From Candidatus Omnitrophota bacterium (GTDB taxonomy: Bacteria; Omnitrophota; Gorgyraeia; Duberdicusellales; 4484-171), in assembly GCA_021735655.1 (NCBI GenBank), contig JAIPGM010000001.1, forward strand, positions 277,262 through 341,261: DNA of 64,000 nt, written 5' to 3'. Each line of letters starts with the position of its first letter. Positions within the stretch are counted from its first letter, which is position 1. Both the position numbers and the translations under genes were made by a program. The notes under the pieces are model-generated. The model was not told where the DNA came from. It worked only from the letters and a program-made list of their open reading frames with translations, and ran no database searches. Shown here piece by piece: positions 56,410 through 64,000 of the stretch.

Positions 56410-57222
56410 ATGACTACGATAACTTTTTATAAACTGCAGGCTTCCGGTAATGATTTTATTCTTATTGATAATCGTAAGACAAAGCTTAAGGCCGGCCAGC
56501 TAAAAAAGCTTGCCCGAAAGTATTGTCAGCGCAAATTGTCTATCGGAGCTGACGGCCTTTTGGTTATTGAGTCTTCGAAGAAAGCATCTTTCAGGATGAG
56601 GATTTTTAATGCTGACGGCTCAGAGGCCGAGATGTGTGGAAACGGCGCTCGCTGTACTGCTTATTGGGCCAAGAGTAAAGCTAAACAGGTTAAGTTTGAA
56701 ACTCAAGCCGGAATAATTGAAGCTTGCTTAAAAGCTGATAGGGTTGCTATTAAGCTTAGCGACCCTAAACAGATTAAGGTGCGTATCCCAATTGTTGTTT
56801 TGGGTCGAAAGATACATCTAAATTTTATCAATACCGGCGTGCCACATGTGGTTATTTTTGTTTCTGGATTAGATAAAATCGATGTTGAAAAAATAGGCCG
56901 GGCAGTACGATTTCATAAAAAGTTTCAACCGGCCGGGACAAATGTTAACTTTGTTGAGATAATTAATGATAACTTTGTTCGGGTAAGAACCTATGAGCGG
57001 GGGGTTGAAGCTGAAACTTTAGCTTGTGGCACTGGAAGTGTTGCCGCGGCAATTTTATTAAAATTTAAACTTAAAGTCACAAGCGGTAATCATAAGGTTA
57101 GAGTCTTAACTAAAAGCCAAGAAACCTTAAGCGTGCATTTTAGTAAGATTGATGATAAAGTAAGGGATGTTTGGCTTAAAGGCAAAGCTGATCTGGTTTG
57201 CCAGGGAAGTTTAAAGTTTTAA
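56410..57222 (+). CDS. dapF: diaminopimelate epimerase
   Basis: Two catalytic Cys motifs: MCGNGARC and CGTGS. Confidence 0.85.
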   Translation: MTTITFYKLQASGNDFILIDNRKTKLKAGQLKKLARKYCQRKLSIGADGLLVIESSKKASFRMRIFNADGSEAEMCGNGARCTAYWAKSKAKQVKFETQAGIIEACLKADRVAIKLSDPKQIKVRIPIVVLGRKIHLNFINTGVPHVVIFVSGLDKIDVEKIGRAVRFHKKFQPAGTNVNFVEIINDNFVRVRTYERGVEAETLACGTGSVAAAILLKFKLKVTSGNHKVRVLTKSQETLSVHFSKIDDKVRDVWLKGKADLVCQGSLKF

Positions 57223-57239
57223 ATTATTTAGGAGGATTT

Positions 57240-58118
57240 ATGCTTAAAGGAAGTATTGTCGCTATAGTAACGCCTTTTGACTCTCAAGGAAATATAAACG
57301 AAGCTAAGTTGAAAGAGTTGATTGATTGGCATATTGATTGCGGCACCGACGGTATTTTAGTTTGCGGGACGACTGGAGAAAGTGCAACTCTTACTCATCC
57401 TGAACATAAGCGGATTATTGATTTAGCGGTTTTGCATATAGATAAAAGAGTTCCGGTTTTGGCTGGTTGCGGTTCTAATTCAACTCATGAGGCTCTTGAT
57501 CTGGTTACTCATGCCAAGAGCGCTGGAGCAGATTTTGCTTTAGTAATTACTCCTTATTATAATAAACCCACCCAAGAGGGGCTTTATCGGCACTTTAAAG
57601 AAATAGCTGATAATGTTGATATGCCGATAATTATTTATAATGTTCCTTCGCGCACCGGAAGCAACATCCTTCCTGAGACCGTGGCTAGAATTTATAAGGA
57701 TTGTAAGAATGTTGTCGGGATTAAAGAAGCTAGTGGTTCACTTGATCAAATTACTAAGATAATGAGTTTGGTAGACGATAAGTTTCTGCTTTTTTCAGGA
57801 AGTGATGAGATCAATTTGCCGATACTTGCTACCGGCGCATCAGGAGTAGTTTCGGTGGCCGCAAATATCGTACCTAAGGAAATCCATCAGCTGGTAGCGA
57901 AGTTTTTAGAGGGTGATTTAGCTGAGGCTAGAAAAATTCAACTCCATCTTTATGAGTTAATTAAAACTCTTTTTGTTGAAACAAATCCGATCCCGGTAAA
58001 AACTGCCTTAGGGCTTATGGGGTTAATTGAGCCGAATATGCGCCTACCTTTATGTAATTTGAGTGAGACAAATCTAAGTACTTTAAAGATAGTTTTGAAA
58101 AAGTATAAGTTAATTTAA
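57240..58118 (+). CDS. dapA: 4-hydroxy-tetrahydrodipicolinate synthase
   Basis: GTTGES and active-site Lys region (IVGIKEASG). ATG 57240 with RBS AGGAGG. Confidence 0.9.
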   Translation: MLKGSIVAIVTPFDSQGNINEAKLKELIDWHIDCGTDGILVCGTTGESATLTHPEHKRIIDLAVLHIDKRVPVLAGCGSNSTHEALDLVTHAKSAGADFALVITPYYNKPTQEGLYRHFKEIADNVDMPIIIYNVPSRTGSNILPETVARIYKDCKNVVGIKEASGSLDQITKIMSLVDDKFLLFSGSDEINLPILATGASGVVSVAANIVPKEIHQLVAKFLEGDLAEARKIQLHLYELIKTLFVETNPIPVKTALGLMGLIEPNMRLPLCNLSETNLSTLKIVLKKYKLI

Positions 58119-58136
58119 TAGTTTAGGGAGGATATA

Positions 58137-58853
58137 GTGGTTAAATTAGGCATAAGCGGTGCCCGGGGAAAGATGGGTGAGCGGATAATTGCCTTGGCTA
58201 AAGAGTCAGGTGATTTTCAGATAATTTTTGGCTTGGAGCGCTTGGACCATCCTGACATCGGAAAGAATATCAATGGGGTGCCGATAGTTGAATCCCGTGA
58301 CTATATCCAGCAGTGTGACTGTTTGATTGATTTTAGTGCCGCCAAGGCGATAACTGATAATTTATCTTACTTAACGGAGTTTAAGAAGTCAGCAGTCATC
58401 GGTATAACCGGCTTAGATTCATCTAGTCAGGAAAAAATAAAGTCGGCAGCAAAAAATATCCCGATAGTTTTTTCACCGAATATGAGTGTGGGAGTTAATA
58501 TTTTGTTTCGTTTATTAAAAGAGGCAGCCAAAAGTTTAGCTGGCTACCAAGCCAGTATTTTTGAGGCTCATCATATCCATAAGAAAGACTCTCCTTCGGG
58601 AACCGCTAAGAAAATAGCAGAAATTATTAACGGTTATGATTTTAATATAAAAGTTGAAGATATCGAAGCTAAGCGTGAGGATGAAATCGTTGGTGATCAT
58701 AAAGTAGTTTTTGAAAGCGATCTTGATAAGCTAGAGTTATCCCATTCGGCTAAGACCAGAGATATTTTTGTTCAGGGAGCATTAGTTGCCGCTAGTTGGG
58801 TTAAAGGTAAACCGGCTGGTTTATATTCGATGGAGGATGTTTTAGGAAAATGA
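58137..58853 (+). CDS. dapB: 4-hydroxy-tetrahydrodipicolinate reductase
   Basis: GARGKMG NAD(P)-binding; E-AHHIHKKDSPSGTA motif. GTG start with RBS AGGGAGG. Confidence 0.8.
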   Translation: MVKLGISGARGKMGERIIALAKESGDFQIIFGLERLDHPDIGKNINGVPIVESRDYIQQCDCLIDFSAAKAITDNLSYLTEFKKSAVIGITGLDSSSQEKIKSAAKNIPIVFSPNMSVGVNILFRLLKEAAKSLAGYQASIFEAHHIHKKDSPSGTAKKIAEIINGYDFNIKVEDIEAKREDEIVGDHKVVFESDLDKLELSHSAKTRDIFVQGALVAASWVKGKPAGLYSMEDVLGK

Positions 58854-59998
58854 AAAAATTTGAATTGTCAGAACGGCTAAAAAAATTCCCACCGTACTTA
58901 TTTGCTGAAATTGACCGGCAAAAGTCACTTTTAAGAAAGAAGCGGGTTGAATTTATCGATCTTAGTATCGGTGATCCGGATATTGCCGCACCATTAGCCG
59001 TAATCAACAGCTTAAGCAAAGCCGCAAAAATAAAGATTAATCAGAAGTATGCTTTAGATCAAGGAAAGACCGCTTTTCGTTTGGCTATAAAAAAATGGCA
59101 GAAGAAGCGTTTTGGAGTATCAGTTGACGCTGAAAGTCAGGTGCTTCCTTTAATCGGCTCAAAAGAGGGTTTGATTCATTTTCCTTTAGCTTTTGTTAAC
59201 TCCGGTGAATATATAATTGTGCCTTCACCCGGGTATCCCGGCTATAAAAGTGCAGCTCGTTTTGTAAGCGCAAAGATTCATGAATTACCGCTCCTTGAGA
59301 AGAACAGATTTTTGCCTGAGCTCTCAAAGATTCCGCTTGGGGTGAGAAATAAAGCCAAACTTATCTATTTGAACTATCCGAATAATCCGACAACAAGCCT
59401 GGCCCCTTTAGGATTTTTAAAAGAGGTGGTAAATTTTTGTTCTAAATATGGAATAATCCTTGCTTATGATAATGCTTATTCGGAAATTTACTTTAAAGAT
59501 AAGCCGCACAGTGTATTAGAAGTTAAAGGAGCCGATGAGGTTGCCCTGGAGTTCCATTCACTATCAAAGACATATTGTGTAACCGGCTTCAGGGTTGGTT
59601 GGGCCAGCGGTAATCCCCAATTAGTTAAAGGCCTGCTTAAGGTTAAGGCTAACGTTGATTCAGGAATTTTCGGCGCAATTCAAGAGGCAGCAATAACTGC
59701 TTTAGATACCCAGAGCGGTTACGTTAATAATTTGAGAAAAACGCTTAGACAACGAAGGGATATCTTTATTGATGTTTTAGAAAAATCAGGCATTGAGCCT
59801 TGCTATTGCGACTCAACTTTTTATGTTTGGGCTAGAGTCCCGAGAAAGTTTAAGTCTTCGATAGACTTCTCTAAATACTTGCTTCAAGAAAAAAGAATTG
59901 TTGCAACTCCCGGTTTAGGATTTGGAAAGTACGGCGAAGGGTTTATTCGCTTTGCTTTAACTGTAGATAAGAACATTTTAAGAAAGGTTAGGATATAA
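58850..59998 (+). CDS. dapL: LL-diaminopimelate aminotransferase (class I aminotransferase)
   Basis: N-terminal YLFAEI..IDLSIGDPD pattern of DapL. PLP-Lys SLSKTY. Located in the dap cluster. Confidence 0.65.
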   Translation: MKKFELSERLKKFPPYLFAEIDRQKSLLRKKRVEFIDLSIGDPDIAAPLAVINSLSKAAKIKINQKYALDQGKTAFRLAIKKWQKKRFGVSVDAESQVLPLIGSKEGLIHFPLAFVNSGEYIIVPSPGYPGYKSAARFVSAKIHELPLLEKNRFLPELSKIPLGVRNKAKLIYLNYPNNPTTSLAPLGFLKEVVNFCSKYGIILAYDNAYSEIYFKDKPHSVLEVKGADEVALEFHSLSKTYCVTGFRVGWASGNPQLVKGLLKVKANVDSGIFGAIQEAAITALDTQSGYVNNLRKTLRQRRDIFIDVLEKSGIEPCYCDSTFYVWARVPRKFKSSIDFSKYLLQEKRIVATPGLGFGKYGEGFIRFALTVDKNILRKVRI

Positions 59999-60529
59999 GT
60001 GTTAAGCAAGTGTAGTTTTAAAATAATTTTGTTTTTGTTGGCGAGTAGTTTAATTGCCGGCAGTAACTTTGCTTTGGATATTGAGAGCGATGCTTTTAAG
60101 AATGGCGGTTATATTCCTGATCGCTACACCTGTGATGCCCAGGATTTTTCTCCGGTTCTTTCCTGGAGCAATGCGCCTCAAGCAACCAAGAGTTTTGCCT
60201 TAATTGTCGATGACCCCGATGCTTCGTTTAAGGTTTGGGTCCACTGGGTAATTTTTAATATACCGGCTGAGACTAGCAAGCTCAAAGAGAACATTACCAT
60301 TGATGAGCTAAGTTCTTTAGGAATAGTTCAGGGAACCAATGACTTTGAAGTTTTGGACTATCGAGGTCCTTGTCCGCCTCAAGGTAAACCCCACCGTTAT
60401 TCTTTCAAGCTCTACGCTTTAGATATGAAACTTTCGTTGGAGGAGGGAGCGACTAAAAGTGAGCTCATAAAAGCAATCCAGGGTCATATTATCGCTGAAA
60501 CTAAAATAGTCGTTTCTTATCAGCGTTAA
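59999..60529 (+). CDS. secreted PEBP-family protein (YbhB/YbcL-like)
   Basis: Signal peptide. PEBP motifs DPDAS..HWV and GPCPP..HRY. Confidence 0.7.
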   Translation: MLSKCSFKIILFLLASSLIAGSNFALDIESDAFKNGGYIPDRYTCDAQDFSPVLSWSNAPQATKSFALIVDDPDASFKVWVHWVIFNIPAETSKLKENITIDELSSLGIVQGTNDFEVLDYRGPCPPQGKPHRYSFKLYALDMKLSLEEGATKSELIKAIQGHIIAETKIVVSYQR

Positions 60530-60588
60530 TTAAAAATAGTTAAGGTAGTTTTCGTTAAATGCAGTATTCACTTTTATTGTTAAATTAA

Positions 60589-62137
<1,549 letters not shown>

Positions 62138-62159
62138 GTTGTTAACATAGTTATAATTT

Positions 62160-62236
62160 CGCGGGGTGGAGCAGCCTGGTAGCTCGCAAGGCTCATAACC
62201 TTGAGGTCTTGGGTTCAAATCCCAACCCCGCAACCA
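62160..62236 (+). tRNA. initiator tRNA-fMet (anticodon CAT), CCA encoded
   Basis: CGCGGGG..CTCATAA..TTCAAAT..CCCCGCAACCA. It has the C1:A72 mismatch and the A11:U24 pair, and is near-identical in architecture to E. coli tRNA-fMet. The anticodon stem has 2 rather than 3 consecutive G:C pairs. Confidence 0.85.
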
Positions 62237-62247
62237 TCTTTATAAAA

Positions 62248-62283
62248 GCCCAGATTAATTAATTTTAGTCTGGGTTTTTTATT
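62248..62283 (+). terminator. rho-independent terminator after the tRNA
   Basis: Stem GCCCAGA/TCTGGGT with an AT-rich loop, followed by TTTTTTATTT. Confidence 0.6.
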
Positions 62284-62377
62284 TGGGTAGAGGAAAGGGC
62301 GTTCGGATAACACTGGGATAACAAAAGTATCCTGTAGACTTTTATTCCTCGCCCCATAAAGACCCCCACCCCATCCG

Positions 62378-62417
62378 ATTTAGCCCCAGATATAGTTATA
62401 AGGGCTGTTTTTGGTGC
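62378..62417. repeat. 40-bp direct repeat, copy 1 (ATTTAGCCCCAGATATAGTTATAAGGGCTGTTTTTGGTGC)
   Basis: 38/40 identical to the copy at 63096-63135. It contains the AGCCC..GGGCT inverted pair followed by a T-run. Confidence 0.85.
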
Positions 62418-62521
62418 GTAGAGGAAATTTTAAAAAATACTCTTAGGCTATCTAAAAGGGGTATGAAATTTATTTTTTTATCTTTTTTGAGAATGGTATA
62501 ATGTTGTGTAAGGAGAACGAA

Positions 62522-63034
62522 ATGGATACAAAAGAAAAACAGAAGATACTTGAAAGGTATTTGCATATACCTGAAGAAGAGCTAAGTGAAATGCTCTTAG
62601 CTGATGAAAAGGGATATAAAGATGGCGTCTATCAGTTGCTTTTGGACGCCGCTAAGTCAAGAGGCTTTGGTGCAGGAACAAGGGAAATTCTCATTAAGGC
62701 TTCATCTTTGCAACGAGAAGTTAAAGAAAAGCTCGCTTTGCAAACATTAACTCCTACACAAAAAAGGATATTTACTATACTCCCAGGTTTTGCTATGTGG
62801 CATTATTTTTTTGCTCCAAAAGAATGTAAACAAAGAAAAAAAGATGCAATACGATGTCATTGGCGGGGATGGAGAAACTACCTACTGTTAATTTTGGCTG
62901 GTGCAGTGTGTGTAACTATCTTTTCAGGCACTCAAACGACACTAGACCAGATTATGCTTATTTTTGTACTCGTTCTTGCAACTATATGTATATCAATATA
63001 CCTACATCTACAAGAAAGAAAAAATAAGAAATGA
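62522..63034 (+). CDS. hypothetical protein with a soluble N-terminal domain and 2 C-terminal TM helices
   Basis: Extended -10 TGGTATAAT at 62494-62502; RBS AAGGAG; ATG 62522. No recognisable family. Confidence 0.4.
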   Translation: MDTKEKQKILERYLHIPEEELSEMLLADEKGYKDGVYQLLLDAAKSRGFGAGTREILIKASSLQREVKEKLALQTLTPTQKRIFTILPGFAMWHYFFAPKECKQRKKDAIRCHWRGWRNYLLLILAGAVCVTIFSGTQTTLDQIMLIFVLVLATICISIYLHLQERKNKK

Positions 63035-63095
63035 AACAGTATGCCTTATTTTTTCTCATAACTACCTTCATACTTCTCTATAAATAGGTTTTCAA

Positions 63096-63135
63096 ATTTA
63101 GCCCCAGATATAGTTATAAGGGCTGCTTTTGGTAC
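63096..63135. repeat. 40-bp direct repeat, copy 2
   Basis: ATTTAGCCCCAGATATAGTTATAAGGGCTGCTTTTGGTAC. Confidence 0.85.
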
Positions 63136-63210
63136 TTAAATCAAATTCTAGAAAGCGGGTTTATTATTTTACTTTAAAAGAAACTGGGTTGGGTGTAGAA
63201 TAAGGCTAAT

Positions 63211-63639
63211 ATGCAAGCTAAAATCAAGAAAATCATAAAGAGAGAAGGGTTAATTATCTTAGGGATTATACTCTGTGGAGTTTTTTTAGCTTATTTAGGC
63301 GGTTTCTTATCTTTTCAAAAGTCTAATTGTTCTTTTCAAAAGTCTAATTGTTATTTTTTTAATCAGAGGTATAAACAACCAGGAACATCGGATAAGTATT
63401 TGTCTAAAGAAAAAATATTAGAAGATATCCGTGGAGAATACCCTCAATATGATTCCGTAGATGATGCCATTTTCGCAAAGGTGATTGAGAATGAATTGAA
63501 GCGGTGTGGGCAGTCAGGAAAACTTAGACTATTGGTTCGGACGGCAGGGTTCTGTGGTATTTTTTTACTTTTTTTGGGTTATCCCATCTACCTATCTATC
63601 CGTTTCATTATCTGGGCAATCAAAGCCTTGAGGAAATAA
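63211..63639 (+). CDS. hypothetical small membrane protein containing an internal 7-aa tandem duplication (SFQKSNC x2)
   Basis: N- and C-terminal TM helices. RBS AAGG upstream. No family. Confidence 0.4.
   Translation: MQAKIKKIIKREGLIILGIILCGVFLAYLGGFLSFQKSNCSFQKSNCYFFNQRYKQPGTSDKYLSKEKILEDIRGEYPQYDSVDDAIFAKVIENELKRCGQSGKLRLLVRTAGFCGIFLLFLGYPIYLSIRFIIWAIKALRK
63310..63351. repeat. perfect 21-bp tandem repeat x2 (CTTTTCAAAAGTCTAATTGTT), in-frame
   Basis: Direct read. 21 bp equals 7 codons. Confidence 0.9.
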
Positions 63640-63650
63640 TAGGAGGTAAT

Positions 63651-63743
63651 ATGTTAATAAGAAAATTAATGCATTGGTATATAATTGCGGCAGCAGTAGG
63701 CACAATACTGATGCTTTTGTTATTTTTGTTTGGAGTATTATAA
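63651..63743 (+). CDS. small hydrophobic peptide ORF (30 aa, MLIRKLMHWYIIAAAVGTILMLLLFLFGVL), absent from the ORF track
   Basis: Strong RBS AGGAGGT 7 nt upstream of the ATG. Single TM helix. Confidence 0.35.
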   Translation: MLIRKLMHWYIIAAAVGTILMLLLFLFGVL

Positions 63744-63752
63744 GGGGCTAAT

Positions 63753-63833
63753 ATACAATTTAAAACCAAGAAAATCATAACAAGAGAAGGGTTAATAAGT
63801 TTAGGGTTACTCATCCTTGGTGCAGCTAATTAG
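63753..63833 (+). pseudogene. degenerate duplicate of the 5' end of gene 63211..63639 (no ATG; reads IQFKTKKIITREGLISLGLLILGAAN*)
   Basis: ~75% nucleotide identity to 63204-63262. The start codon is mutated to ATA and the reading frame is truncated after 26 codons. Confidence 0.35.
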
Positions 63834-64000
63834 ATAGCTAATTTTTGTGTTAGATGAAAAATAAAAGGAGATGATACGATAATTGTTCAATGATAGTTGG
63901 TGAAAACTCTGGATTATCAGTAGAATAAATAGATAGTCACAGAGTAGATAGGTTATAGGTTGTATTGTTTTTCTGGGGCTTAATTGACCCCGTAAAGGAG

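Follow-up and report, generated by a model that had tools for sequence, protein, structure and literature searches.

Integrase-built, additive flexible islands beside tRNA genes have been described for Alteromonas and Prochlorococcus. A second kind of system to be considered is the integron cassette, together with the single attC site lacking an integron-integrase (SALIN) and with the attC site cluster that has no integron-integrases (CALIN), that is, the cassette array without integrase, which was reportedly described by Cury and colleagues in 2016. Does either of them account for what is found behind the initiator tRNA gene of a bacterium from a little-studied phylum? Here we analyse a stretch of 64,000 nucleotides (the window in the following) from contig JAIPGM010000001.1 of a metagenome-assembled genome (MAG) of a Candidatus Omnitrophica bacterium (locus tags K9L86_00925 and K9L86_00930), to whose proteins ORF1, ORF2 and the enolase of the window are 100% identical. 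Downstream of its tRNA-fMet gene a direct repeat, called R below, stands twice and brackets a small gene, open reading frame 1 (ORF1). R is a real, locus-specific boundary repeat in a small flexible islet that lies beside tRNA-fMet and before a conserved ompA-uppS-cdsA-dxr block. Our preferred reading, to which we give a probability of about 0.45, somewhat below even, is that R is the junction or the substrate of a recombination that added the single-gene ORF1 module, either through a site-specific enzyme acting in trans or through homology-driven exchange or conversion.

The locus resembles the tRNA-adjacent flexible islands in several respects. The islet starts at the 3' end of the tRNA gene, its content varies among relatives and within a species, its cargo consists of small accessory genes, some of them seen on mobile elements, and direct repeats bound a module. 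On the other hand, R is not a copy of the tRNA 3' end, and no integrase was found in the window or among the listed genes of the relatives' islets. The module here is one gene in 718 bp and not a multi-kilobase insertion, and the block at its left end is itself patchy. The kind of locus is well known, and the present one is a modest variant of it, marked by a repeat that is neither tRNA-derived nor a convincing attC, by single-gene modules with their own promoters and by the patchy left-end block. On present evidence it is a well-documented small flexible genomic islet, useful for annotation and for strain-level population studies, and will not surprise specialists. If R is a recombination site, it would show the gain of a single accessory gene at a tRNA hotspot in a mostly uncultured phylum, with no resident integrase and no tRNA-derived attachment (att) site, and it would link the tRNA-fMet hotspot to the integron cassette pool.

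A boundary repeat in a variable islet

The 40-mer at 62378-62417 recurs at 63096-63135 on the same (plus) strand, with 38 of 40 positions identical and the two starts 718 bp apart; both sequence reading and a pattern search confirm exactly what the original prediction had given. A pattern search allowing up to 3 mismatches found no third copy in the window, where both copies stand at the tRNA locus, and 100 dinucleotide shuffles gave 0 matches. The 40-mer is the core of a longer repeat of about 55-59 nt: taken over 59 nt, R is 86% identical between copy 1 (R1) and copy 2 (R2), whose positions are given in Table 1. Its left edge is abrupt and starts with ATTTAG, while its right edge fades near AAATTYT. 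Mismatches are confined to positions 31, 39, 41, 44, 46, 47, 53 and 56, so that the first 30 nt differ at 0 of 30 positions and the next 29 at 8 of 29 (Fisher p=0.002). A further copy was found in a related genome (locus L020; loci and contigs are numbered in this way below). R1 and R2 have the same core, which differs from that of the L020 copy at 4 of 30 positions, while the right arms of the three copies are roughly equidistant from each other, with 6-7 of 26 positions different. Because the divergence is uneven and the right arms are equidistant, R1 and R2 are not the products of one recent plain duplication. The core has been homogenised or constrained, or it is a site of exchange.

Is the arrangement an artefact of assembly? 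The Logan assembly of run SRR12088349 (L001) matches the window base for base over 57000-63891, both R copies included. The two assemblies were built from the same reads; since they agree, the order R1-ORF1-R2 is not peculiar to one assembler. In the public collections no relevant copy of R was found. The pattern TTAGCCCCAGATN{7,11}AAGGGCTG gave 2 unrelated chance matches in genome_contigs and 0 in metagenome_contigs. The relaxed pattern TTAGNNCNAGATATAGTTATAAG also had 0 matches in metagenome_contigs, a collection that lacks these samples, since otherwise L020 would match. A scan of viral_contigs gave 5 matches, none of which was extended past 15-18 nt by BLAST of R and which were taken as chance, and blastn of 62237-64000 against plasmids and phages returned nothing.

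The left anchor of the islet is, as had been stated, a tRNA-fMet gene followed by its terminator. Both ARAGORN and Rfam find the tRNA, and its sequence reads with the C1·A72 mismatch, which is a hallmark of bacterial initiator tRNAs. The terminator is conserved in L020, and its version in L010 carries compensatory changes in the stem. The rest of the window is occupied by housekeeping genes, namely arginine and lysine biosynthesis, tRNA synthetases, lipopolysaccharide export and then eno and ftsB. For comparison we took loci whose enolase shares 83-93% identity with that of the window. In the nearest ones (L005, L006 and L007, enolase 93%), the tRNA is followed by about 170 nt, then by an ompA-like gene and uppS-cdsA-dxr-rseP; in L008 (92%), by about 245 nt and the same ompA-uppS-cdsA-dxr-rseP block. 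In L020 and L021 (88%), three small, unrelated genes lie in the 1.85 kb ahead of ompA, and in L032 (83%) about 15 genes in 9.3 kb. In L023 (84%) synteny ends at the tRNA. The span from tRNA to ompA thus ranges from about 0.17 to 9.3 kb. Since orthologs of ompA and uppS are absent from the 64 kb, the islet extends over at least 1.76 kb and past the end of the window. Variation is also found within a species: the sequences of L008 and L010, identical in enolase protein and tRNA, diverge exactly after the CCA end. Several relatives' contigs break off within the tRNA or just downstream of it. By these comparisons, the stretch from tRNA to ompA is a hypervariable islet and a hotspot of gene gain of a fairly ordinary kind. 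The predicted variable region beside the initiator tRNA is therefore borne out, and the comparison of the locus among related genomes, which had been proposed as a check, does find presence, absence and length variation.

Duplicated segments consisting of a terminator, or of a terminator plus promoter, were also seen in two relatives, where they flank 2.7 kb of genes in L023 (11649-11688 and 14368-14407) and 5.7 kb in L032 (14154-14195 and 19811-19852). Repeats at boundaries thus seem to be general at this hotspot, though those of L023 and L032 differ in sequence from R.

What lies to the left of ORF1 is shared with some relatives. The left-end block, made of the tRNA terminator, a 95-nt spacer and R1, comprises about 190 nt of non-coding DNA. 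A minus-strand reading frame at 62265-62369 was considered as a sign that the spacer is coding, and was rejected when the sequences were read, as it is frame-shifted in L020. Between the window and L020, 62237-62433 is 86.9% identical, against 80.2% for enolase, 75.4% for ftsB and 74.2% for dapA-PBP in the same comparison. The block is better conserved than the surrounding core genes. It is present in L020, but the equally close L005 and L008 lack it, and its distribution is therefore patchy. Where does the shared sequence stop? The homology of window and L020 breaks off near 62433, at the right edge of R, and unrelated genes lie beyond; the left edge of R2 is abrupt; and contig L022, the third contig of the species of L020, ends 19 nt past the GTT of R. 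The breakpoints thus coincide with R.

It might be asked whether R1 and R2 are just what is left, neutral and now without function, of an old local segmental duplication or rearrangement in intergenic DNA that evolves fast. We consider this unlikely. Other local duplications are present (the fragment at 63746-63809, a 21-nt tandem in ORF2 and the duplicated terminators of relatives), and the GC content of the islet, 34.4% against 37.2 ± 2.1%, is not anomalous, so that a compositional anomaly was rejected; both points would suit a relic. However, a relic should not be expected to diverge as unevenly as the two copies do, R and its block are more conserved across species than the neighbouring protein genes, and the breakpoints fall at the edges of R in independent comparisons.

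Table 1. Features of the islet behind the initiator tRNA gene (positions in the window)
Feature	Position	Strand	Remarks
Initiator tRNA-Met(CAT)	62160-62236	+	ARAGORN; Rfam tRNA 61.5 bits; anchors the variable islet on the left
Intrinsic terminator hairpin of the tRNA	62243-62283	+	-21.6 kcal/mol, z -4.8; T-run after it
Conserved non-coding spacer, about 95 nt, predicted long imperfect hairpin	62284-62377	+	fold z -1.5, -2.5; consensus hairpin
Weak attC-like match over spacer and R1 core	62317-62404	-	18.1 bits, E about 0.006 for 8 kb
R1	62378-62436	+	invariant 30-nt core 62378-62407; GTTATAA at 62395-62401
Extended -10-like promoter TGGTATAAT, putatively of ORF1	62494-62502	+	read from sequence; ribosome-binding site AAGGAG at 62510-62515
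ORF1, 170 aa, two C-terminal hydrophobic segments	62522-63034	+	cargo of the 718-bp R1-R2 module
R2	63096-63154	+	invariant core 63096-63125; sharp left edge
Extended -10-like promoter TGTAGAAT, putatively of ORF2	63194-63201	+	promoter scan: TTTAAA-17-TAGAAT ending at 63201
ORF2, 142 aa, N- and C-terminal hydrophobic segments	63211-63639	+	
ORF3, 30-aa hydrophobic peptide	63651-63743	+	gene call in L001
Start-less fragment of an ORF2 paralog (ATG to ATA)	63746-63809	+	85% identical to 63204-63268
Fragment like the 3' half of L004 attC sites (TAGCTAATTTTTGTGTTAGATG)	63833-63858	+	BLAST to L004 101-133 and 1966-1985
Conserved non-coding segment	63865-63981	+	90.6% identical to the last 117 nt of L035 and L037

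A proposed recombination junction or a possible cis-acting element

How might the module have been added? The left-end block ends in R1, and R2 directly follows ORF1. Most likely, recombination at R would have brought in the 718-bp ORF1 module and left a copy of R on each side, the cores of the two being identical and their right arms different. A recombinase working in trans, or encoded past the end of the window, would have been responsible; or else plain homologous recombination, or gene conversion from one R copy to the other, could have done the same. Each cargo gene brings its own promoter, and R might in addition give weak termination between modules. In favour of such a role are the hotspot character of the locus, the patchy and well-conserved left-end block, the coincidence of the breakpoints with the edges of R, the identical core beside equally diverged right arms, the membership of the cargo in the mobile gene pool (see next sections) and the agreement of two assemblies.

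Several results weigh against it. An empty site or excision product, with R directly before ORF2, was not found. No tyrosine recombinase was detected in the 64-kb window by phmmer with an integrase seed, nor is there an integrase among the Pfam matches listed for the 61 ORFs of the window, which agrees with the earlier reading that the window lacks one; and the called genes in the complete islets of L020 and L032 have no integrase or resolvase domain among their listed Pfam matches. Site-specific recombination alone leaves the identical 30-nt core unexplained; for this, gene conversion, or selection on a binding site, would account just as well. R always stands upstream of a gene, on its coding strand, and this placement would suit a cis-acting role too. 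Finally, the known copies of R are three, from two genomes (R1, R2 and that of L020), and the statistics drawn from them are thin.

The idea that the repeats are att sites of an integrated module stands in part. It is favoured by the homology breakpoints at the edges of R and by the integron cassette that is homologous to ORF1, but a tRNA-derived att repeat is missing: the final 12-25 nt of the tRNA, with 1-5 mismatches allowed, do not recur in 62237-64000 or in the islets of L020, L032 and L023. A classical tRNA-att integrative island was accordingly rejected, as neither a tRNA-derived repeat nor an integrase was found in the window or in the islets and gene lists of the relatives, though polymorphism of content among close relatives is present.

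Could R work in cis instead? In that case it would be an RNA or DNA element, such as a weak terminator or insulator, a 5' leader or an operator, which was copied or selected beside the cargo, and recombination would be incidental. We take this to be possible, on the doubtful side. The placement of R is in its favour: all three copies are on the plus strand, and 76-105 nt separate the end of the 40-mer from the ATG of a plus-strand gene. So is the AGCCC/GGGCT inverted pair followed by a T-run, which the original prediction had pointed out and which is indeed present in R1 (62382-62386 and 62402-62406). This stem is not kept in L020, however, where T·G and C·A stand at two of the five pairs and the T-run is interrupted. 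What is kept is the 15-nt 'loop' AGATATAGTTATAAG, invariant in all three copies, which could be a protein-binding site.

An alternative hairpin of 15 pairs fits all three copies, with 44 of 45 cells paired and six one-sided changes that all keep the pairing. Even so, no double compensatory change was seen in any of its pairs among the three copies, the fold energies of R are ordinary (z -1.8, -0.2 and 0.0), and three sequences are too few to establish a structure. An Rfam search of 61500-64000 at E<=10 returned the tRNA plus sub-threshold noise, with nothing for R. The 3' part of R1 resembles the tail of the tRNA terminator (76% over 25 nt), which again would suit a cis-acting element; against this, the terminator scan does not call R, whose stem has 5-6 bp and whose loop has 13-15 nt. 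The long loop, the weak stem and the degradation of stem and T-run in L020 set R apart from intrinsic terminators. Like these and like repetitive extragenic palindromic (REP) sequences, R is a short imperfect intergenic palindrome followed by a T-run. Unlike them, it has a loop that is too long and at the same time its best-conserved part, and a weak, unconserved stem. REP- or MITE-like repeats are dispersed in many copies through the intergenic regions of a genome; within the 64 kb, R has two copies, both at one locus.

The distance from the right end of the 59-nt R to the -10-like element is about 58 nt for R1, about 42 nt for R2 and about 20 nt in L020. R is therefore not a promoter element of fixed geometry, because this distance varies. 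The recombination reading and the cis-acting reading are not mutually exclusive.

Some more specific candidates were tried and rejected. A sigma-70 promoter inside R has no -35 element at a workable spacing, and the real-looking promoters sit downstream of R. A sigma-54 promoter in the TGGTGC part of R would need the GG-N10-GC spacing, which by eye is found in no copy. A dif/Xer site was dismissed on two grounds: compared by eye with the dif sites of E. coli and B. subtilis, R has no 11-6-11 architecture, and the genes of the relatives hold the same orientation across the locus, which is thus not a terminus.

Relation to integron cassettes

The ORF1 family is tiny: out of 1.84 billion proteins, 23 representatives belong to it at E<=1e-3. 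One homolog has a resolved context. It is P0002 (53% identity) on contig L004 (positions 1-2632), a 2.6-kb metagenome contig of assembly ERZ23498525 in the European Nucleotide Archive (ENA), where it forms a single-gene cassette flanked by attC sites. L004 is a clean integron cassette array with four attC hairpins between single genes, which encode a DUF4145 protein, the ORF1 homolog and two proteins of unknown function. Its sites, of 75-80 nt, are classical attC hairpins with ATAAC/GTTAT R boxes and an L stem with bulged bases; they show compensatory changes in 4 pairs and fold with z -2.4 to -4.7. DNA similarity between ORF1 and the L004 cassette starts 17 nt before the ATG, at the G|TT boundary of the cassette.

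Is R then an attC site? A covariance model was built from the four L004 sites, which it scores at 58-92 bits. Its best match in 60-64 kb is the minus-strand site over the spacer and the R1 core (Table 1), in which GTTATAA of R1 takes the place of the R' box and the bulged G and T are like those of the model. The homologous site of L020 is likewise the top match in its region, at 13.1 bits. The segment 63776-63858 reaches 11.3 bits (E 0.36), and the region of R2 after ORF1, where R2 has no 5' half, 6.8 bits (E 5.5). In the match at 62317-62404 the spacer between R and L boxes has a 4-nt deletion on one strand, which, judging from the established geometry of attC, would change the spacing of the two boxes. 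Folding of single-stranded DNA (ssDNA) gave no attC-like hairpin at the window site (z -0.3 and +0.4), and the substitutions of L020, read from the alignment, break rather than keep the L''/L' pairs. Integron recombination does not conserve sequence past the crossover. R stays conserved for 35 nt on the far side of the putative G|TT crossover. An array of at least two neighbouring attC sites, each at the 3' end of a cassette, was not found. R was thus not classed as an attC site, in view of scores below 20 bits against 58-92, the spacer gap, the unstable ssDNA fold, the broken L pairs, the absence of a 5' half in R2 and the conservation past the crossover.

A weaker version of the idea would be that the locus is a decayed or atypical cassette array of the CALIN or SALIN type, in which the site at 62317-62404, with its R' box inside R, is what remains of attC, ORF1 was captured as a cassette and the integrase is elsewhere or lost. 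This we judge quite unlikely. The locus does share features with such arrays: the modules are single genes in one orientation, a site with GTTATAA is repeated, the homolog of ORF1 is a genuine cassette whose similarity begins at the G|TT boundary, the model finds a weak top match over R1 and again in L020, and a fragment like the 3' half of attC lies at 63833-63858. Isolated cassettes and small CALINs without integrase are also known (Loot et al. 2023, bioRxiv 10.1101/2022.09.11.507474). There are also differences. The sites in the window stay below 20 bits, R is conserved on both sides of the putative crossover, and the R''-L''/L'-R' hairpin is lacking in R2 and marginal in R1. The genes have their own promoters, and no intI or attI was identified in the window, where the genes upstream are eno, ftsB and the tRNA.

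Given a repeat that is neither a tRNA att site nor a canonical attC, does it belong to something not yet described? R could serve a cassette-shuffling system of Omnitrophota that has not been described, as a site of about 30 bp perhaps distantly related to attC. In such a system, single-gene modules with their own promoters would be inserted and exchanged just downstream of tRNA-fMet by a recombinase encoded elsewhere. We hold such a system to be quite improbable as well.

Cargo genes and other features of the islet

The original prediction placed one small membrane-protein gene between the repeat copies and another after the second copy. Both are there (ORF1 and ORF2), with hydrophobic segments of transmembrane length. 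They do not form a paralogous family as had been suggested, being unrelated to each other (BLASTP E=1.6). Neither has a Pfam family at the cut-off or a PHROG or PADLOC match above threshold. The nonamer TGGTATAAT before ORF1 also precedes the first cargo gene of L020. Homologs of ORF2 occur in mobile contexts; L012 is an integrative element at tRNA-Leu with an integrase and a resolvase. Since a homolog of ORF1 is found in an attC cassette and a relative of ORF2 in an integrase-bearing element, the two genes belong to the mobile gene pool. Viral relatives of the cargo amount to one partial match of 30 residues.

The ORF2 family has near-invariant terminal membrane segments (MN..IKKIIAREGLIILGII and GYPIYLLIRFIIWAIKTL), between which the sequence is hypervariable and differs greatly in length. 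At the 5' end of the coding sequence, 32-45 nt of ORF2 are 87-91% identical in DNA to homologs (L015-L019) that are otherwise 33-35% identical. Inside ORF2, 63310-63351 is a perfect 21-nt tandem duplication, by which the peptide SFQKSNC appears twice. Further downstream, 63746-63809 copies the first 65 nt of ORF2 and promoter-proximal bases; as it meets a stop after 26 codons, it is a pseudogene fragment.

The conserved segment at 63865-63981 is again more similar to distant contigs than its surroundings would suggest, since the core genes of L035 and L037 are only about 67% identical to those of the window. Three contigs break in or at this segment: L035 and L037 stop there, and Logan L001 at 63891. 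It holds a conserved mini-ORF of 12 codons (MIVGENSGLSVE / MTVGENSGSSVE), and Rfam has no match for it. A multicopy or mobile element may begin here. The sequence TCTGGGGCTTAATT at 63972-63985, inside this terminal segment, is the inverted complement (13 of 14) of the first 14 nt of R with the preceding A (AATTTAGCCCCAGA). A related version is present in L035, and the resemblance may be due to chance.

The initiator tRNA gene itself varies in two ways. Its T-stem is different in the window, L005, L008, L020 and L035 (TTGGG, TCAGG, GTAAG, AGTAG and ACAAG); the changes are always compensatory, and the remaining tRNA is almost invariant. In several relatives, a group I intron interrupts this gene at the anticodon loop; the window tRNA has no such intron. 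The intron of L035 (11595-12310; also in L036 and L037) scores 66.9 bits with Rfam RF00028 and, like the I-Ssp6803I intron in the tRNA-fMet gene of cyanobacteria, carries an ORF of the PD-(D/E)XK family (PF11645). In L005 (11570-11870; also in L006 and L007), an insertion of about 230 nt without an ORF lies at the intron site; it falls below the Rfam gathering score, and the gene was missed by ARAGORN. Intron polymorphism is probably the reason why the contigs L009 and L011 end 28 nt into the tRNA.

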